Source: Escherichia coli
GTDB taxonomy: Bacteria > Pseudomonadota > Gammaproteobacteria > Enterobacterales > Enterobacteriaceae
Length of the DNA stretch: 64,000 nucleotides
Direction: 5' to 3' (one strand)
Assembly (NCBI RefSeq): GCF_024223415.1
Contig: NZ_CP100502.1
Below, piece by piece: positions 2,863-63,357 of the stretch; position 1 is the stretch's first letter, and every line of letters begins with the position of its first letter. Position numbers and translations under genes: made by a program. The notes beneath the pieces were generated by a model that saw only the letters and a list, made by a program, of their open reading frames with translations, had not been told where the DNA came from and did no database searches.

Positions 2863-3804
2863 GTGAGTAAGAAGAAAAACACCACAACGCCCACGCCGCA
2901 TGATGCCGCGTTCCGGTCGTTCCTGGCGAATCCCGACGTCGCCAGAGATTTTCTGGAACTGCATCTTCCTGCGGAGTACCGGCAGTTGTGCGACCTGTCC
3001 ACGCTGAAGCTGGAACCCGCCACCTTTGTTGAGCCGGACCTGCATCAGTACGCCAGCGATATCCTCTGGAGCGTGAAAACCACCGGGGGTGAAGATGGTT
3101 ATGTTTATACGCTCATCGAGCACCAGAGCACCGAAAATCTGTACATGCCTTTTCGCATGTTACGCTACAGTGTGGCGGCGATGCAGAGACATCTGGAGCA
3201 GCACAAAACGTTGCCACTGGTCATTCCGGTGCTGTTCTATCACGGTGAGCGCAGCCCGTACCCGTACAGCATGAACTGGCTGGACTGTTTTGAGAATCCG
3301 GCGCTTGCGGCTAAAATATACACAAAGCCGTTTCCGCTGGTTGATATCACTGTCGTTGATGACAATGAAATCATGAACCATCGCCGGATGGCCGCACTGA
3401 CGCTGCTGATGAAGCATATCCGTCAGCGGGATATGCTGATGTGTCTGGACAACCTGGTCAGAGCACTGCAGGACATCCAGGATGAAGAGCAGATTACAGT
3501 TCTTTTCAACTATCTGCTTAATGGCAGCGAACATGTAACGGTTGAATTTTTGCAGACGCTGGCGCAGCGACTGCCGCAGCACGAGGACAGCATTATGACA
3601 CTGGCAGAACGTCTTAAGCAGGAAGGTATCCAGCAAGGTATCCAGCAGGGTATCCAGCAGGGTATCCAGCAGGGAGTTCAGCAGGGGGCGCTTCAAAAAG
3701 CACGGGAAATCGCCCGGGAGCTCCGGAACGCGGGAATGCCGGCAGCACAAATCTGTCAGCTGACCGGACTTTCTGAAGCTGAACTGAAGAACATCACTCA
3801 CTGA
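2863..3804 (+). CDS. Rpn-family (YhgA-like, PD-(D/E)XK) recombination-promoting nuclease, 313 aa, GTG start
   Basis: N-terminus VSKKKNTTTPTPHDAAFRSFLANPDVARDFLELHLP is typical of E. coli RpnA-E/YhgA-like proteins; SD aggagg at 2853-2858; C-terminal tail with GIQQ repeats; ORF-table start at 2806 is a TTG extension. Confidence 0.8.
   Translation: MSKKKNTTTPTPHDAAFRSFLANPDVARDFLELHLPAEYRQLCDLSTLKLEPATFVEPDLHQYASDILWSVKTTGGEDGYVYTLIEHQSTENLYMPFRMLRYSVAAMQRHLEQHKTLPLVIPVLFYHGERSPYPYSMNWLDCFENPALAAKIYTKPFPLVDITVVDDNEIMNHRRMAALTLLMKHIRQRDMLMCLDNLVRALQDIQDEEQITVLFNYLLNGSEHVTVEFLQTLAQRLPQHEDSIMTLAERLKQEGIQQGIQQGIQQGIQQGVQQGALQKAREIARELRNAGMPAAQICQLTGLSEAELKNITH
3625..3684 (+). repeat. Five tandem 12-bp units (ggtatccagcaR) encoding (GIQQ)n inside the Rpn C-terminal tail
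   Basis: Direct reading: ggtatccagcaa ggtatccagcag ggtatccagcag ggtatccagcag ggagttcagcag. Confidence 0.9.
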
Positions 3805-3812
3805 TGAGAGCC

Positions 3813-3841
3813 AAAAGGCCCGGCAAAATGCCGGGCCTTTT
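3813..3841 (+). terminator. Rho-independent terminator after the Rpn gene
   Basis: Stem ggcccggc / gccgggcc with loop aaaat, followed by tttt. Confidence 0.75.
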
Positions 3842-3865
3842 GCCAGCAGGAGCAGAGAAAACAGT

Positions 3866-4036
3866 ATGACGATTGCAGAACGTCTTATACAGAAAGGTTT
3901 TGAAAAAGGTGCTCTTGAAGTGGCGCGGGAAATAGCCTGCCGGCTTCGGGATATGGGCTGGACGCCGGAACGGATTCAGGAGGCCACGGGACTTTCCGGT
4001 GAAGAACTGAAAAAACTGTTTCCTGATGAGCAGTAG
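3866..4036 (+). CDS. Small protein (56 aa) paralogous to the C-terminal tail of the upstream Rpn protein (RpnS-like)
   Basis: Not in ORF track (<60 aa). ATG 3866, TAG 4034-4036; MTIAERLIQKGFEKGALEVAREIACRLRDMGW... aligns with the Rpn tail MTLAERLKQEG...ALQKAREIARELRNAGM...; hairpin follows at 4037-4053. Confidence 0.5.
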   Translation: MTIAERLIQKGFEKGALEVAREIACRLRDMGWTPERIQEATGLSGEELKKLFPDEQ

Positions 4037-38043: not shown

Positions 38044-38251
38044 AATAATTCCTGAGCAGTTAAATCAGAATGGGATATACCGGTGCTCCGGTACAGACAG
38101 GATGATGTTTGTTTCCGGCTATACTTGCGTTACCGGAAATAAATGCCAGTGTGGCCAGGTAAATAGCCTCATAGTTTACTGAAGGTGATTATTCCTGATA
38201 CTGGCTGGTTGATGTGTCGTCAGACATAAAACGAATATGAGCGTAATCTTT

Positions 38252-38381
38252 AACGCTCCGCGCCGAATCGATCCATGATGGATGACTCGACGATTTATGA
38301 ATCGAACGTACCGGCGCTTGTCCCTGAAACAGTTCCCGGCCCTCGTCCGGATAACCTGCAATTCAGACAGGCACATGTGCC
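38252..38381 (-). promoter_or_regulatory. Conserved ~130-bp leader element, copy 1 (traG-traH intergenic); contains perfect palindrome ggcacatgtgcc (38370-38381)
   Basis: Shares aacgctccgcgcNNaaNcgatccatgatgg and ccctcgtccRgaYaaYcYgcaRttcWgacaggca blocks with 62171-62292 and 63233-63357. Confidence 0.6.
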
Positions 38382-38437
38382 CGTACACTCTTGTATCTTA
38401 CTGAGTATATCAGAATTTATGTAAATTCAAATATCCT

Positions 38438-58490: not shown

Positions 58491-59084
58491 TTAATTGGTG
58501 TGAGGCGGCTGGAGAGGACGAATGACGACTGTCATTCCGTCCGAATGCAAATGCGGGAAAGACCACTGAAATAAGAGATATATAAAAGGAATTGATAATT
58601 TTTCGTACAGACTTGTTTTCCGTGGGTATGTAATAACTGAAAAACTCAAATCATAAGATTCCAGTCTCTTTATAAGTTTATTTATTCTTGCTGGAGTAAA
58701 GAGATGTGAATGCATGACAATGATTTCATCATTATTAATTGCTTTTGATATCAGAGAAAGCAATACATCCCAGTGTTTCCTCATTGACTTCGGGCAACGT
58801 GTGTCAGCATAGGGGCTAAGATGTATAGTTGATTTCTTGCTTCCCTTTTTCTTCTTCACAAAGAATGTGAAGTCGTATTTAGATGCAGACCTTACAATAA
58901 GAAGTACACATCTGAAAAGTAGTGGGAAAATGCAAATCACAACCACCACACAGAAATATAACATATAAGGCAATGATAAGTTGTCAGTGTATGGATAACG
59001 TAAGTATTGCCATGGGGTAGTGATGTACAGACAAAGCGTACACCAAAGCAACCATAGATATAATGGTACGTTATTATTTTTCAT
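58491..59084 (-). CDS. pilK: PilK-like membrane protein, 197 aa
   Basis: ORF track; AT-rich; positional. Confidence 0.5.
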   Translation of the reverse strand: MKNNNVPLYLWLLWCTLCLYITTPWQYLRYPYTDNLSLPYMLYFCVVVVICIFPLLFRCVLLIVRSASKYDFTFFVKKKKGSKKSTIHLSPYADTRCPKSMRKHWDVLLSLISKAINNDEIIVMHSHLFTPARINKLIKRLESYDLSFSVITYPRKTSLYEKLSIPFIYLLFQWSFPHLHSDGMTVVIRPLQPPHTN

Positions 59085-59377
59085 ATTAGTTGACTTTTAA
59101 TACTGTTTTCTATCACCACATTTTTATGTGTCTCATTTGGCACTTCGTACTGTTGGAAATATTGTTGGCGGCGGATGCGTGTCTGTTCACTGCTTTCTAT
59201 TAACACCGCCATGGCGATTGCAAAGTATATGCAAATCAGGAAAATCCAGAACGCGTTTGGTATCTTCCAAAAAAGTGTGGACAGTTTGTTATGTGGTGAA
59301 GCTAAAATCGGAGAAAGGATTCCACAGACAATCACAATCGCGATGGTTAATTTAACTAGAAAGAACATGGTAAACAT
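59081..59377 (-). CDS. pilJ: PilJ-like small membrane protein, 98 aa from ATG 59377 (ORF track extends to TTG 59434)
   Basis: SD ggaga upstream of the ATG; hydrophobic N-terminus. Confidence 0.5.
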   Translation of the reverse strand: MFTMFFLVKLTIAIVIVCGILSPILASPHNKLSTLFWKIPNAFWIFLICIYFAIAMAVLIESSEQTRIRRQQYFQQYEVPNETHKNVVIENSIKSQLI

Positions 59378-59552
59378 CGTTAATCTCCATGATAAAAGGG
59401 AGAGAGGTAATAAAGAAAATAAAGATGGCAACAAACGGCTAAATTAAAATCGTTAAAAGGTGTACACAGACAATCGCAATCGCGATGGTAAATTTAACTA
59501 AAAAGAACACGGCCCCCACCTGTTTTGACGAGGTCTTTTGTTTTTGTTGTGT

Positions 59553-59807
59553 TTACGACAGCCAGTCCTGTAGATGCTGATGGCGGGAGCTGCTGCCCTT
59601 GTGCCAGCGGCAGTGGCTGCCGGGAGCACGCTCCAGTCGGAACAGAAATCGGTTGTCGCGTAGTACCACCACGAGACAGTTATCCGGCGTGCAGAAACGT
59701 CGGGCAAGCTCATCGGGGTCTGTCGGTGTTTTCGTTGAAAACAGCCTGCGTTTGCAGTGTGCGTCGACGACCAGTATTTGCAGTCGTCCGGGATGTTGCT
59801 GTGGCAT
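59553..59807 (-). CDS. pilI: PilI-like protein, 84 aa
   Basis: Internal ATG 59807 with strong SD aaggag; first gene of the pil operon. Confidence 0.6.
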   Translation of the reverse strand: MPQQHPGRLQILVVDAHCKRRLFSTKTPTDPDELARRFCTPDNCLVVVLRDNRFLFRLERAPGSHCRWHKGSSSRHQHLQDWLS

Positions 59808-59867
59808 CAAAGACTCCTTCCGGAACGGGAAAAGAAGCAGCTGTACCGTCATAACTGCACGTACCGG

Positions 59868-59956
59868 TTGCGAAAAAACGGCACAAGCGAGTAGTGACAG
59901 AAAGAATGTCGGAAACGGCAGGAAGGGCGGTACAGGCTGCGAAGACGGGAAACGGG
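59868..59956. repeat. ~88-bp direct repeat, copy 1 (upstream of pilI)
   Basis: About 95% identical to 60581-60670. Confidence 0.85.
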
Positions 59957-59968
59957 TTGTGTTGGGAA

Positions 59969-60520
59969 TTAACGCACGTGAGGTGTGATGAGAACGACGC
60001 GCTTTTCGCCAGCTCCGTCTCCGGTGAATCCATTCACGACAAGGGACTGTTCCGGTCTGAGAGAAATGCTTTGTTCAACAGTCTGTTTTCGTTTCTGGTC
60101 TGTGGTCGAGAGTCGCAGAGTGATATTTCCGGGCGCACCGTGAATATCCGGTGATACCTGCATTCTGACACCGGGAGAGACATCTGCAGTGAAGGTATCC
60201 GGACCTACGGACGTTACCAGTGATTCAACACAGGGCGTATTCTGTATCATCCCGTGGAGCGTTTCAGGTGTCAGCGTCAGGCTGTCATTAAAAAATGCAC
60301 TGCGTGAAATACTCCCCTGAGCACCGGCAAACAGGTCCGGATGGCGCTCATTAAGAAGGCTTCCGTATTTTTCCGCCAGGCAGATTGGGTTGCTGGCCGT
60401 TGTGTCTGTTCGCACGGTATCGACCGTGAATGTCACCTGCGGGTGATGTTCCCTGTGGCCTGTGCAGCCGGACAGCAGTGCGGCGGCTATCGTCATCCAG
60501 AGTAGTGGTTGTTTTTTCAT
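59969..60520 (-). CDS. Lipoprotein, 183 aa (R64 traD position)
   Basis: Lipobox LLSGC; ORF track. Confidence 0.6.
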   Translation of the reverse strand: MKKQPLLWMTIAAALLSGCTGHREHHPQVTFTVDTVRTDTTASNPICLAEKYGSLLNERHPDLFAGAQGSISRSAFFNDSLTLTPETLHGMIQNTPCVESLVTSVGPDTFTADVSPGVRMQVSPDIHGAPGNITLRLSTTDQKRKQTVEQSISLRPEQSLVVNGFTGDGAGEKRVVLITPHVR

Positions 60521-60580
60521 GCTGTTAATTTCCTCTCAGGGTAAAAAGAAAGACTCGCACCGTCATGTCGATGGGGGCCG

Positions 60581-60670
60581 CTTGCGAAAAAATGGCACAA
60601 GCGAGTAGTGACAGAAAGAATGTCGGAAACGGCAGGAAGGGCGGTACAGGCTGCGAAGACTGGAAACGGG
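60581..60670. repeat. ~88-bp direct repeat, copy 2 (upstream of the lipoprotein gene)
   Basis: See 59868-59956. Confidence 0.85.
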
Positions 60671-60692
60671 GTATGCCGGGGATTACACATCC

Positions 60693-61376
60693 TCAGTGTA
60701 ATGTGATAGTCGTCTGCTCCTGTGTTGCACCCCAGACATCTTCTGGCAGGCTGGGCAGCCCGATAAATAGGGTGTGAAAGAGGGTTTCTCTGCGTTCGAT
60801 CCCGAATTGATGTTCGTATCCTCTCACCACCTGAAATCCTTCGTCGGAGAATATTAACTCTGCCGTTTCCAGAAGCTGCATAGTTTTGCGGTGTAGTGGA
60901 GTGATCAGCTGCAACGTAACTGGTGCCCTCATATCGCCTGTCGGTAGAAAACACTCTTCGGTGCGACTTAGTTGTAGCAGATGACGTTTCCCGGAACAGG
61001 CCCGTTCAATGGATTCATTGAACACCCTCTCAGGCCATGGGCAGACATATGTGCGCCAGCCTGCTTTCTGTAATTTACCCAGTGCAGCCCGAAAACGAAA
61101 CAACGGACATTCCCCGACAGTGGCAGAGCTGAGAAAGAGCGTATTCAGCGTTCCGATGATGGGAATATTGCGATCTTTTTCGGTCAATGCTTTTAACGCC
61201 ATGATTTCGCCAGGGAGACTACGGAACTCAGGATGTCTGCTGGCACCAGAAAGCCATTCAAGCAGGTAATGCCGTAATCCGGTTTCACTGGTTATATTGT
61301 GGTTTTCCTGTGCCGTTTTCAGGGCATTCAGTGCACACCAGAGCAACTGGCGCACGGGATGTTCTGTCGTGGTCAT
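60693..61376 (-). CDS. Hypothetical protein, 227 aa (R64 traC position; putative transfer-gene regulator)
   Basis: ORF track; positional only. Confidence 0.5.
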   Translation of the reverse strand: MTTTEHPVRQLLWCALNALKTAQENHNITSETGLRHYLLEWLSGASRHPEFRSLPGEIMALKALTEKDRNIPIIGTLNTLFLSSATVGECPLFRFRAALGKLQKAGWRTYVCPWPERVFNESIERACSGKRHLLQLSRTEECFLPTGDMRAPVTLQLITPLHRKTMQLLETAELIFSDEGFQVVRGYEHQFGIERRETLFHTLFIGLPSLPEDVWGATQEQTTITLH

Positions 61377-61594
61377 GCGAATGTCCTACTGTGAGATGAA
61401 AAGAAGACCGGTATCCGTTCTCTCCGCCACACGTGATGGCACGGGCCGGCCTTTGATAAAACGAATCAATACTCTGGGGTGAAGCCTTTTATTTCTTTCG
61501 CCATTAAGAAATACACGGTTCCATCAAAAGACAGGGGGAGTCCATGGTGGGGATGGCTCCGTGCAGGCTTCACTCCAGAATATTCTCTTGAATT

Positions 61595-61620
61595 GAAAAA
61601 AGCCCGGCCCGAAGGCCGGG
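61595..61620 (-). terminator. Rho-independent terminator downstream of the NusG-like gene
   Basis: Stem cccggcc / ggccggg with loop cgaa, followed by T-run on the minus strand. Confidence 0.7.
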
Positions 61621-61629
61621 AAATACTGG

Positions 61630-62184
61630 CTATGGGATGTTTACAAGGCGCTCCATAAAGCCGTGATGTTCGGCATTTGATACCAGTTCCAGGAGCAGGG
61701 ATATCCTCGACTCAGGCTGGAGAGTATTTTCCATTCTGAGGAGATACTGATATTGTGCTTTTGTCAGCCATATGCTGGAAGCCGCATTCAGCTCTTCCCT
61801 GGCTCCCGGATTTAGCACAGGGTCCGGGTAAATCTTCATTAATCCATCAACAATATCTTTATTGACGGGTTTTATTTCACCGCCAAACTTCACGAAATCA
61901 ATGAAGGCGCTATGGCGACGTAATGCCGATACTGGTTGAATGTCAAAATTAGCCAGAATAAAAAAGTACCCTGGAAAAATAGCGAATATTCTTTCACGGT
62001 AACAGCACCTGGAGTCTGCCCGTCTTATCTTTCTTGTTATTAATGGAGTCCATGGTACGACGTTTTGCTCATTCAGCCATGAGAATAAAGATTCTCTGTT
62101 TTTGCCGGCTGTATTATATTGCGCAAGATACCAGTTCCGGTTATTCAGGTGTTCTATATTCACGAAGTTCAACGCTCCGCGCAA
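61630..62184 (-). CDS. RfaH/NusG-family transcription antiterminator paralog (R64 traB position), ~180 aa; true start probably downstream of the TTG at 62184
   Basis: NGN-domain pattern NWYLAQ...PWTPLITRKIRR...IFAIFPGYFFI...FVKFG parallels RfaH (SWYLLY...PMITLEKIVRG...LFPNYLFV...FVRFG) as I recall it. Confidence 0.65.
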   Translation of the reverse strand: MRGALNFVNIEHLNNRNWYLAQYNTAGKNRESLFSWLNEQNVVPWTPLITRKIRRADSRCCYRERIFAIFPGYFFILANFDIQPVSALRRHSAFIDFVKFGGEIKPVNKDIVDGLMKIYPDPVLNPGAREELNAASSIWLTKAQYQYLLRMENTLQPESRISLLLELVSNAEHHGFMERLVNIP

Positions 62185-62292
62185 AACCGATCCATGATGG
62201 ACGATTTTGCGATGTCAGGCGAATATGCTAAATCATATGTCTGAAGCAGTGTCCAGCCCATATCTGGATAAACTGCAGTTCTGACAGGCATA
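62171..62292 (-). promoter_or_regulatory. Conserved leader element, copy 2 (overlaps the annotated start of the NusG-like gene)
   Basis: See 38252-38381. Confidence 0.55.
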
Positions 62293-62604
62293 TAACCAGC
62301 AGACTCTAGTACGTTCTGTATCGGTGATTTGGCGAACTCACAGATAAAGAACGGCTAAGCACTAATATCAGCAATACAGTGGCACAGTATTGTGATACGC
62401 GAAATAAAACATCAGCACATCAGTTCAGAGTAAGGTCGCCATATATCGGGCATGAGCCAGATACAAATAACTGGGACACCGTCTGAAGTGATTTGCTTTA
62501 TTAAAGTAACTTGTGCTTGGTGTTTATGTTTATCAATTTGGGATCGCCTGTAAAGTGCAAAATGCAATTTCCATGAAAGTGTCCCCTTTAATGGGGACAC
62601 CTGT

Positions 62605-62913
62605 TCACATTTTTTCGTTTTCTTTAGCTGTATTGCTAATCATGAAAACGAAAGTTCGCATCAGCACAGCAGAGCGAAGTGCATCATATCCTTCCAGATT
62701 TAAATTCTTCAGGCTTCGCTTCAGGTAGGTTCGTACCGTTTCGGGAGAAAGCCGACAGTTCTGAGCAATGGCGTCGTAAGGAACACCCATTGCGTAAAAA
62801 ACGCAGACTTTAAGCTGGTTTGTTGATAGCTCGGGAAACATGCCTTCCAACAGAGTGATGGCCGGGAGTTTCTGTATCAGTTGAGGTGACATAGCAAAGG
62901 TCTCCGATGACAA
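62605..62913 (-). CDS. LuxR/GerE-type HTH transcription regulator, ~100 aa (R64 traA position)
   Basis: C-terminal HTH LSTNQLKVCVFYAMGVPYDAIAQNCRLSPETVRTYLKRSLKNL. Confidence 0.6.
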   Translation of the reverse strand: MSSETFAMSPQLIQKLPAITLLEGMFPELSTNQLKVCVFYAMGVPYDAIAQNCRLSPETVRTYLKRSLKNLNLEGYDALRSAVLMRTFVFMISNTAKENEKM

Positions 62914-63232
62914 CTAAAAACGCTATCACCGAGTTCCTACGCTCATTGGTGATAGCCCAGACGGGGGTAGGAATACCGGCGTCATCGGAAACCGGCCAGG
63001 CTAATGCCTGCCCCGCCTGAGCTACCATAGATGACGACAAGAAATACAAGTTCCTGTCTTTATGGTATGGCAAAAAACGACGCCAAATGAAGAAATTAAC
63101 TTCTGCGCCGACGATGACTACGCGGGTTCCTACGCCCGATCACAGTTTTGCCTGTGACCAGTAAAGGGTACTTAGTATAACGCACCGAGTCAACTAACAG
63201 CTTAAAAAACATACAAAAAAGCGTCAAAACTT

Positions 63233-63357
63233 AACGCTCCGCGCCGAAGCGATCCAGGCATGATGCTTCTGCTTTGTGGCGTTCGAACATGCTGGTCCAT
63301 ATGCACGAAACGGTGTCTGACCCTCGTCCAGACAATCCGCAGTTCTGACGAACATAT
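63233..63357 (-). promoter_or_regulatory. Conserved leader element, copy 3 (upstream of the LuxR-type gene)
   Basis: See 38252-38381. Confidence 0.55.

Follow-up and report, generated by a model that had tools for sequence, protein, structure and literature searches.

Why should the thin-pilus operon of a conjugative plasmid and the gene that precedes it be headed by the same sequence? The question is raised by a 64,000-nucleotide (nt) stretch of Escherichia coli DNA (contig NZ_CP100502.1; hereafter the window), which carries the transfer region of an IncI1 plasmid of the ColIb-P9 type, has the regulatory end of that region at the locus considered here, and is 99.9–100% identical to many plasmids of E. 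coli, Salmonella and Shigella. Along the minus strand lie, in turn, traA (whose product has a LuxR/sigma-r4-like helix-turn-helix), traB, a terminator-like hairpin, traC, repeat copy A, trcD, repeat copy B, pilI, pilJ, pilK, and pilL onward. The gene trcD, so named in ColIb-P9 (PMC8004404), encodes a predicted lipoprotein, and pilI opens the operon for the thin (type IVb) pilus. An initial annotation, made from the letters alone, described a direct repeat in front of both units and proposed that a duplicated upstream region of this kind would put them under the same regulator. We favour, with moderate confidence, another account: a leader sequence duplicated around trcD as a footprint of recombination, co-transcription of trcD and pil by read-through, and a functional leader RNA of 105 nt.

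A repeat search of the window identified one two-copy family in direct orientation at this locus, with 108 nt in each copy and a start-to-start spacing of 714 nt (Table 1); the copies are 92.6% identical over that length (blastn, E 8e-42). Positions 59868–59956 and 60582–60670 agree at 87 of 89 nucleotides (97.8%), slightly above the approximately 95% first described, and lie at the distances first reported, 61–150 nt from the minus-strand start codons of pilI (ATG at 59807) and the lipoprotein gene (ATG at 60520). The longest identical stretch is 67 nt (59880–59946). Sub-patterns of 23 and 30 nt occurred exactly twice each, against an expectation of zero in shuffled sequences, and blastn with each copy detected no third copy in the window, the other matches being chance 11–18-mers. 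Similarity of about 70% extends over 183 nt; it begins in the final codons of the preceding gene and reaches the ribosome-binding site of the following one. Two minus-strand open reading frames (ORFs; 59710..60033 and 60517..60954) share the translated repeat PFPVFAACTALPAVSDILSVTTRLC and overlap the real genes in other frames, and are spurious, as the initial annotation held. The repeat makes up the first three-quarters, counted from the 5' end, of the untranslated leader running from traC to pil, present twice in the ColIb-P9-type allele, where copies A and B precisely bracket trcD, an optional gene. The similar 3' coding ends of traC and trcD suggested kinship between TraC and TrcD, but BLASTP similarity of the two proteins was not significant.

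Copy number in related plasmids, which the initial annotation had suggested determining, proved to vary. The spacer sequence was found at 1931 places in 1430 plasmid records, in all of them only at the traC–pilI locus, so that about 500 records (about one-third), including ColIb-P9, have two copies; trcD at 95% identity or above was present in about 475 records. Three alleles were distinguished. The first, that of the window and of ColIb-P9, runs traC, copy A, trcD, copy B, pilI. In the second, found in plasmids of the pESBL and pESI types (L002, L011 and L012), a single copy separates traC from pilI; it carries an A-like CCAGTC on its traC side and B-like GCCGTTTT and GCAACCGG on its pilI side, which places the switch between the two sequences inside the 67-nt identical run. 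In the third, of the R64 type (L001), traD begins 13 nt past traC, and the final 45 nt or so of trcD stand before the single copy. A single hybrid copy is what recombination between two copies would be expected to produce, or what would have served as the substrate before a single-crossover insertion. The duplication would then be the footprint of gain, loss or exchange of trcD by homologous recombination, and not a regulatory duplication selected as such.

The gene-content polymorphism at this position (traD, trcD or empty) is already in the literature (PMC8004404, PMC4288162); the plasmids described there, R64, ColIb-P9 and pESBL-EA11, share this locus and exemplify all three alleles, of which the window has that of ColIb-P9, with an identical TrcD. 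The accessible literature treats gene content only, and in it neither the repeat bracket around trcD, nor the hybrid copy of the empty allele, nor the 3' remnant of trcD in R64 is described. TraD of R64 is paralogous to PilK (32% identity, E 1e-11; positions 2076–2642 of L001 against 58491–59084 of the window) and also to the product of the gene coming after traC in a distant Salmonella plasmid (L007).

Other plasmids were consistent with a slot of this kind. Homologs of trcD with 58–89% identity lie between traC and pilI in diverged plasmids of the I-complex, and others with 43–45% identity lie just upstream of the pil cluster in IncI2 plasmids; the presence of the former in the same slot indicates that trcD is not foreign to it. 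In an IncB/O/K/Z-like lineage (L017–19) trcD is bracketed by another direct repeat, of about 380 nt and about 90% identity, which consists of the last approximately 285 nt of that plasmid's traC, as a dead copy, together with its own downstream spacer (in L017, positions 2461–2840 against 3621–4000, a repeat family of 252, 66 and 48 nt at a spacing of 1158–1160 nt, flanking trcD). In pPIMR of Klebsiella michiganensis (L004, CP029771), an extra block composed of a partial pilI, the spacer and a partial traC lies between pilL and pilK (268–880) and is a mosaic of the single-copy and R64-type alleles. This block and the second trcD-bracketing repeat together argue that the locus is recombinationally active. 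The arrangement spacer–trcD–spacer, which has arisen or been maintained in two lineages, is what insertion by a single crossover, or deletion between repeats, characteristically leaves, and homologous recombination in such an active slot would add, remove or swap trcD between the leader copies. No further diverged spacer lineage was added by searches of genome contigs (one true match and two by chance) or metagenome contigs (40 loci, known variants or chance matches), and blastn of the L024 spacer against plasmids gave zero matches.

Campbell-type integration and RecA-dependent deletion between repeats provide the closest parallels, since there too an optional segment stands between two direct copies of a host sequence, and the alternative allele is a recombinant whose switch lies in an identical stretch. 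The present case differs in that no circular intermediate or donor was identified, in that the outer ends of the copies have diverged, and in that the event is one deduced from sequence. Three other origins or roles were considered and set aside. A transposable element, including a miniature inverted-repeat transposable element, is not indicated by just two direct-orientation copies at one locus with none dispersed. The sfx site of the shufflon is a contiguous 19-bp sequence, GTGCCAATCCGGTAC(G/C)TGG; in copy B 12 nt separate GTGCC from CCGGTACGTG, in copy A the right arm is missing, and a 10-mer match to sfx is expected by chance at the scale of the window. Finally, trcD and half of the repeat upstream of traE in IncK2/Z plasmids looked like a second site of action, but the fragment is bounded by an IS66-family terminal repeat and is a translocated piece.

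If the duplication arose in this way, does each copy nevertheless act as a promoter or operator? The rival reading implicit in the initial annotation is that each copy holds an activator-dependent promoter or a regulator site, with trcD and pil initiated separately under one regulator (TraA, TraC or FNR). Both copies do lie 60–150 nt upstream of a start codon, both contain a block, TCGC..TG...C..TTTTTCGCAACCG, that does not vary among diverged spacers, and plasmid regulators as well as FNR are required for pil expression (PMC5013300). Promoter prediction on both copies, also suggested in the initial annotation, nevertheless revealed no sigma-70 promoter-like site on either strand of 59808–59990 or 60521–60700 in a consensus scan that required -35 and -10 hexamers with at least 9 of 12 matches, A at -11, T at -7 and a separation of 16–18 bp. 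The best pair found by hand, TTCGCA-N15-TATGAC, has a short spacer, lacks the T at -7 and is conserved no better than its surroundings. The accessible papers report no transcription start site for pilI or trcD. Positively controlled promoters often lack the consensus; half-sites spaced as for FNR or CRP were also absent from the repeats. TraC, which transfer requires as a positive factor (PMC4288162, PMC5801416), shows no recognizable DNA-binding fold: its AlphaFold2 (AF2) model is confident (pLDDT 86; a helical N-terminal half and an alpha/beta C-terminal half) and gave zero matches to PDB structures at E <= 0.001, with TM below 0.3, so that the model is uninformative on DNA binding and nothing suggests that TraC is a DNA-binding activator acting on the spacer. 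Moreover, in distant relatives only 13–70 nt separate traC from the next genes, without such a spacer, and the plasmid p538 has a 13-nt deletion just downstream in copy A with no obvious consequence. We therefore consider separate initiation from duplicated promoters quite improbable.

For a more likely source of transcription we turn to traB, which encodes a specialized NusG/RfaH-like paralog required for pil transcription in pESI (PMC5013300). A conserved box, CATCATGGATCGGTTTTGCGCGGAGCGTT, lies immediately upstream of traB and recurs upstream of traH and, as the core GCGCGGAGCGTT, upstream of traA (Table 1; consensus ATGGATCRATTCnGCGCGRAGCGTTnAA). The same box is found 8–10 nt upstream of the traB homologs of L007, L008 and L009, whose TraC proteins are 41–58% identical to that of the window. 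It resembles ops with one gap and could form a mini-hairpin, and its placement matches that of the ops-like site which PrfaH of IncX plasmids uses in its own 5' untranslated region (PMC11880322). These GCGCGGAGCGTT boxes (62182–62171, 38263–38252 and 63244–63233) are candidate TraB loading sites. The conserved box was absent from copies A and B and from the interval between traC and pilV; likewise, no ops-like 12-mer (GGCGGTAGnnTG-like, three mismatches at most) was present on the sense strand within the leaders, no minus-strand leader contained a canonical ops site, and the sequence GGCGGTAC in the repeat is on the template strand only. A k-mer comparison of the repeats with other tra and pil leaders gave no convincing common motif, but exposed homology between the regions upstream of traB and traH, which are 77% identical over about 170 nt (62120–62330 against 38200–38410, minus strand) and end in CATCATGGATCGnTTnnGCGCGGAGCGTT. 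That duplication is more likely than copies A and B to be a shared promoter or leader.

The very strong terminator-like hairpin directly after traB (Table 1) would make traC and everything downstream dependent on read-through. Neither repeat copy adds an intrinsic terminator: none was found by scanning, and the T6 run at 59881–59886 and 60595–60600 is not preceded by a stable hairpin. The absence of boxes from traC to pilV, the need for TraB in pil transcription and the terminator past traB together suggest that trcD and pil are read through from the traA and traB promoters. In the mechanism that we propose, TraB would load at the boxes upstream of traA, traB and traH, and TraB-modified RNA polymerase would continue from the traA and traB promoters through traC, trcD and pil. 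The duplication is tied to trcD, and the empty allele has exactly one hybrid copy; co-regulation is thus more simply explained by co-transcription, and we infer that trcD and pil are co-regulated within a traB–traC–(trcD)–pil unit and not by promoter copies of their own. As to the initial claim of a common regulator, the identity of the upstream sequences stands and co-regulation is probable, while a duplicated promoter or operator is unsupported, there being no sigma-70-like site, the TraB-type boxes lying elsewhere, copy A being truncated and the duplication following the presence of trcD.

Whether the leader itself has a function was addressed by folding. The complete 105-nt leader before pilI has a predicted minimum free energy of -34.8 kcal/mol, compared with -22.35 +- 2.98 kcal/mol in shuffles (z -4.18; 0 of 200 as good), while copy A folds no better than its shuffles (z -0.93). 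The controls were the folding program's own shuffles, used for copies A and B, and mononucleotide shuffles. In the outer stem (59936–59924 with 59849–59838) GCAGC(C)UGUACCG pairs with CGGUACAGCUGC; inner helices follow, and the apical region contains an invariant UUUUUCGCAACCG. The high-identity repeat ends just past this apical motif, which leaves copy A with the 5' strands and the apex but without 28 nt of the 3' strands. The outer stem recurs in L014, L024, L029 and L017B; it is perfect in L024 (13 bp, the bulge being filled and a C:G pair exchanged for U:A) and kept in L014 and L029, and the IncB/O-like spacer has a different long stem within the same architecture. An RNAalifold consensus on eight aligned spacers, from about four lineages, contained 33 pairs, with 93% of cells paired; changes on both sides occurred in five pairs, compared with 1.1 +- 1.0 in shuffles (1 of 500 reaching five) and 0–2 with slid partners. 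The covariation gives modest support to the fold, and the complete leader is probably a functional structured RNA. Searches of 59000–63000 against Rfam (E <= 1) placed no family in the repeats; the other matches were a chance one to SorX and a sub-threshold one to the C4 antisense RNA (RF01695; 62945–63000, minus strand; E 0.0023, 32 bits where the gathering score is 45), which lies upstream of traA in the region named Hft in the pESBL papers and is cut by the edge of the searched stretch.

These results bear on the possibility that the spacer is a neutral scar with no function of its own, its conservation and duplication reflecting recent ancestry and recombination. Conservation within the group is indeed uninformative, as IncI1 spacers differ by only 0–10%; copy A is truncated, and L007 does without such a spacer. 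On the other hand, lineages whose TraC proteins are only 77–88% identical keep the long-range pairing by compensatory changes together with an invariant 13-nt motif, the IncB/O-like spacer has the same architecture built from different stem sequence, and copy B folds far better than shuffles. A functionless spacer is, in our view, distinctly unlikely.

Base composition raises a further alternative. The repeats are 73% pyrimidine, and the ratio of C to G on the sense strand in 78-nt windows reaches 3.29 in copy B, the third highest peak in the 64 kb, and 2.68 in copy A (mean 1.11; 99.9th percentile 2.91), which places these untranslated stretches, C-rich and G-poor over the 70–80 nt or more expected of a Rho-utilization (rut) site, in the top 0.1–0.5% or so of the window. 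All lineages retain an excess of C over G (1.5–2.6) in the spacer's 5' part. Rho might load on each C-rich copy as on an attenuator, so that passage into trcD and pil would need TraB-carrying polymerase; RfaH-type paralogs exclude NusG and Rho (PMC7593976), and the requirement of pil transcripts for TraB is also consistent with such a role. C/G skew is, however, a weak predictor, base-pairing in the predicted rod would occupy the C-rich strand of copy B and hinder Rho (copy A is not predicted to be strongly structured), and a downstream pause or termination site was not identified. We regard rut-like attenuation, which is compatible with the recombination and read-through account, as possible but unlikely; if it were correct, the ColIb-P9 allele would have two such checkpoints in series.

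Returning to the duplicated leader with read-through, the functional unit would be the complete pyrimidine-rich 105-nt rod before pilI, which may act in mRNA processing, in stabilization or by modulating Rho access, and copy A would supply just the 5' strands and the apical motif. A more specific, and quite tentative, proposal is that a cis-acting RNA of about 105 nt in I-complex plasmids, defined by the outer 12–13-bp stem, the pyrimidine-rich strand and the invariant UUUUUCGCAACCG apex, acts with the RfaH-like TraB to set thin-pilus expression, for instance by masking a Rho-loading strand or by marking a site of processing or stabilization. The ColIb-P9 allele would in that case put a half-element, with an unmasked C-rich strand, before trcD and thereby give it a different, TraB-sensitive setting.

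Several points weigh against the account that we favour. Either insertion or deletion may have been the direction of change, and the flanks of the single-copy plasmids differ from the window by 0.7–0.9%, so that a recent excision within one lineage is not demonstrated. A weak activator-dependent promoter in the repeats would escape a consensus scan, and the invariant block TCGC..TG...C..TTTTTCGCAACCG inside both copies might bind a protein. Effectively three to four lineages underlie the covariation, and the structure was derived from the same sequences. The GCGCGGAGCGTT box is called ops-like by resemblance only, and part of it may be the Shine–Dalgarno sequence of traB.

The leaders share further features outside the high-identity repeat. 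ATGACGGT is common to both (59808–59852 and 60521–60566, minus strand) and opens a short hydrophobic reading frame. On the trcD side this frame (MTVRVFLFTLRGN*) stops 4 nt short of the ATG of trcD, and on the pilI side (MTVQLLLFPFRKESL) it continues, in the same phase, into pilI; the trcD-side ATG of this frame is absent in one plasmid (p538). A pyrimidine tract in both leaders is able to pair with each Shine–Dalgarno sequence.

Comparable arrangements are known from other long operons. Structured intercistronic RNAs set differential expression in several of them, as in the papB–papA processing site, the EAR element of the Bacillus eps operon and the LoaP leader hairpin. The pil leader is similar in being a conserved stem-loop, predicted to be stable, between early regulatory genes and the downstream structural genes of a long, antitermination-dependent operon; it differs in having no sequence or Rfam relationship to these elements. 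The ops/JUMPStart leaders of RfaH operons and the PrfaH (ActX) site of IncX plasmids likewise offer the same setting, in which a plasmid NusG paralog controls a long operon for conjugation or a pilus and a leader element precedes the first structural gene (PMC11880322, PMC7593976). Unlike them, the repeat has no ops-like non-template sequence, only GGCGGTA on the template strand, and the ops-like boxes lie elsewhere.

Table 1. Coordinates of the features discussed, numbered from the first letter of the window
Feature	Position	Strand	Remarks
Repeat copy B (pilI-proximal)	59864..59971	-	From the trcD stop codon to 57 nt upstream of the pilI ATG
Repeat copy A (trcD-proximal)	60578..60685	-	Starts 8 nt past the traC stop codon; ends 58 nt upstream of the trcD ATG
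Complete 105-nt structured leader	59836..59940	-	First ~77 nt inside the repeat; rod fold
trcD, predicted lipoprotein of 183 amino acids (LSGC lipobox)	59969..60520	-	ORF; protein identical to ColIb-P9 WP_000744644
pilI, first gene of the thin (type IVb) pilus operon	59553..59807	-	Pfam PF10623 PilI, E 2.9e-32; annotation
traC	60693..61376	-	Annotation
traB, specialized NusG/RfaH-like paralog	61630..62163	-	Pfam NusG; NCBIfam RfaH E 7.7e-11, below cut-off
Intrinsic-terminator-like hairpin, very strong	61603..61620	-	Between traB and traC; 7 G-C pairs, tetraloop, T6
Conserved box CATCATGGATCGGTTTTGCGCGGAGCGTT	62171..62199	-	Ends 8 nt before the traB GTG; ops-like, candidate site of TraB loading
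Second box copy	38252..38280	-	Within the ~170 nt before traH that are homologous to those before traB
Third box copy, core GCGCGGAGCGTT	63233..63244	-	Upstream of traA

Some observations on the neighbouring genes complete the description of the locus. The AF2 model of TrcD was poor (pLDDT 48) and gave no usable fold. A second direct repeat, of 68 nt and 85% identity at a spacing of 142 nt (59303–59370 and 59445–59512), lies around the pilJ start and the pilI–pilJ junction, and is perhaps connected with the '60-bp insert after pilJ' described in ColIb-P9. Further away, an IS66-family element (approximately 43725–46300, plus strand) interrupts rci, the gene for the shufflon recombinase, by insertion in its 5' end, reducing it to an ORF of 336 amino acids compared with 384 in relatives; the element contains HTH_Tnp_1, TnpB_IS66 and DDE_Tnp_IS66 ORFs (43796–46129) and a terminal repeat beginning GTAAGCG (43725–43778).

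The alleles and genes of this locus have been described before; the accessible literature contained no account of the repeat architecture, of the structured leader or of the ops-like boxes. The duplication itself is an ordinary structural polymorphism, probably a recombination footprint, with a leader element that is possibly functional, and it offers an explanation of the known traD/trcD/empty polymorphism as recombination in a repeat-bracketed slot. For annotators, the overlapping ORFs at trcD and pilI are artefacts. IncI1 plasmids are major carriers of extended-spectrum beta-lactamase and other resistance genes, and the TraA–TraB–TraC cascade switches on their pilus and transfer genes. In this respect attention shifts from the repeats as promoters to the 105-nt pil leader and to the GCGCGGAGCGTT boxes upstream of traA, traB and traH, the candidate TraB loading sites being a more useful lead than the repeat. 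If the boxes are confirmed, the TraB regulon of IncI plasmids would become directly testable.

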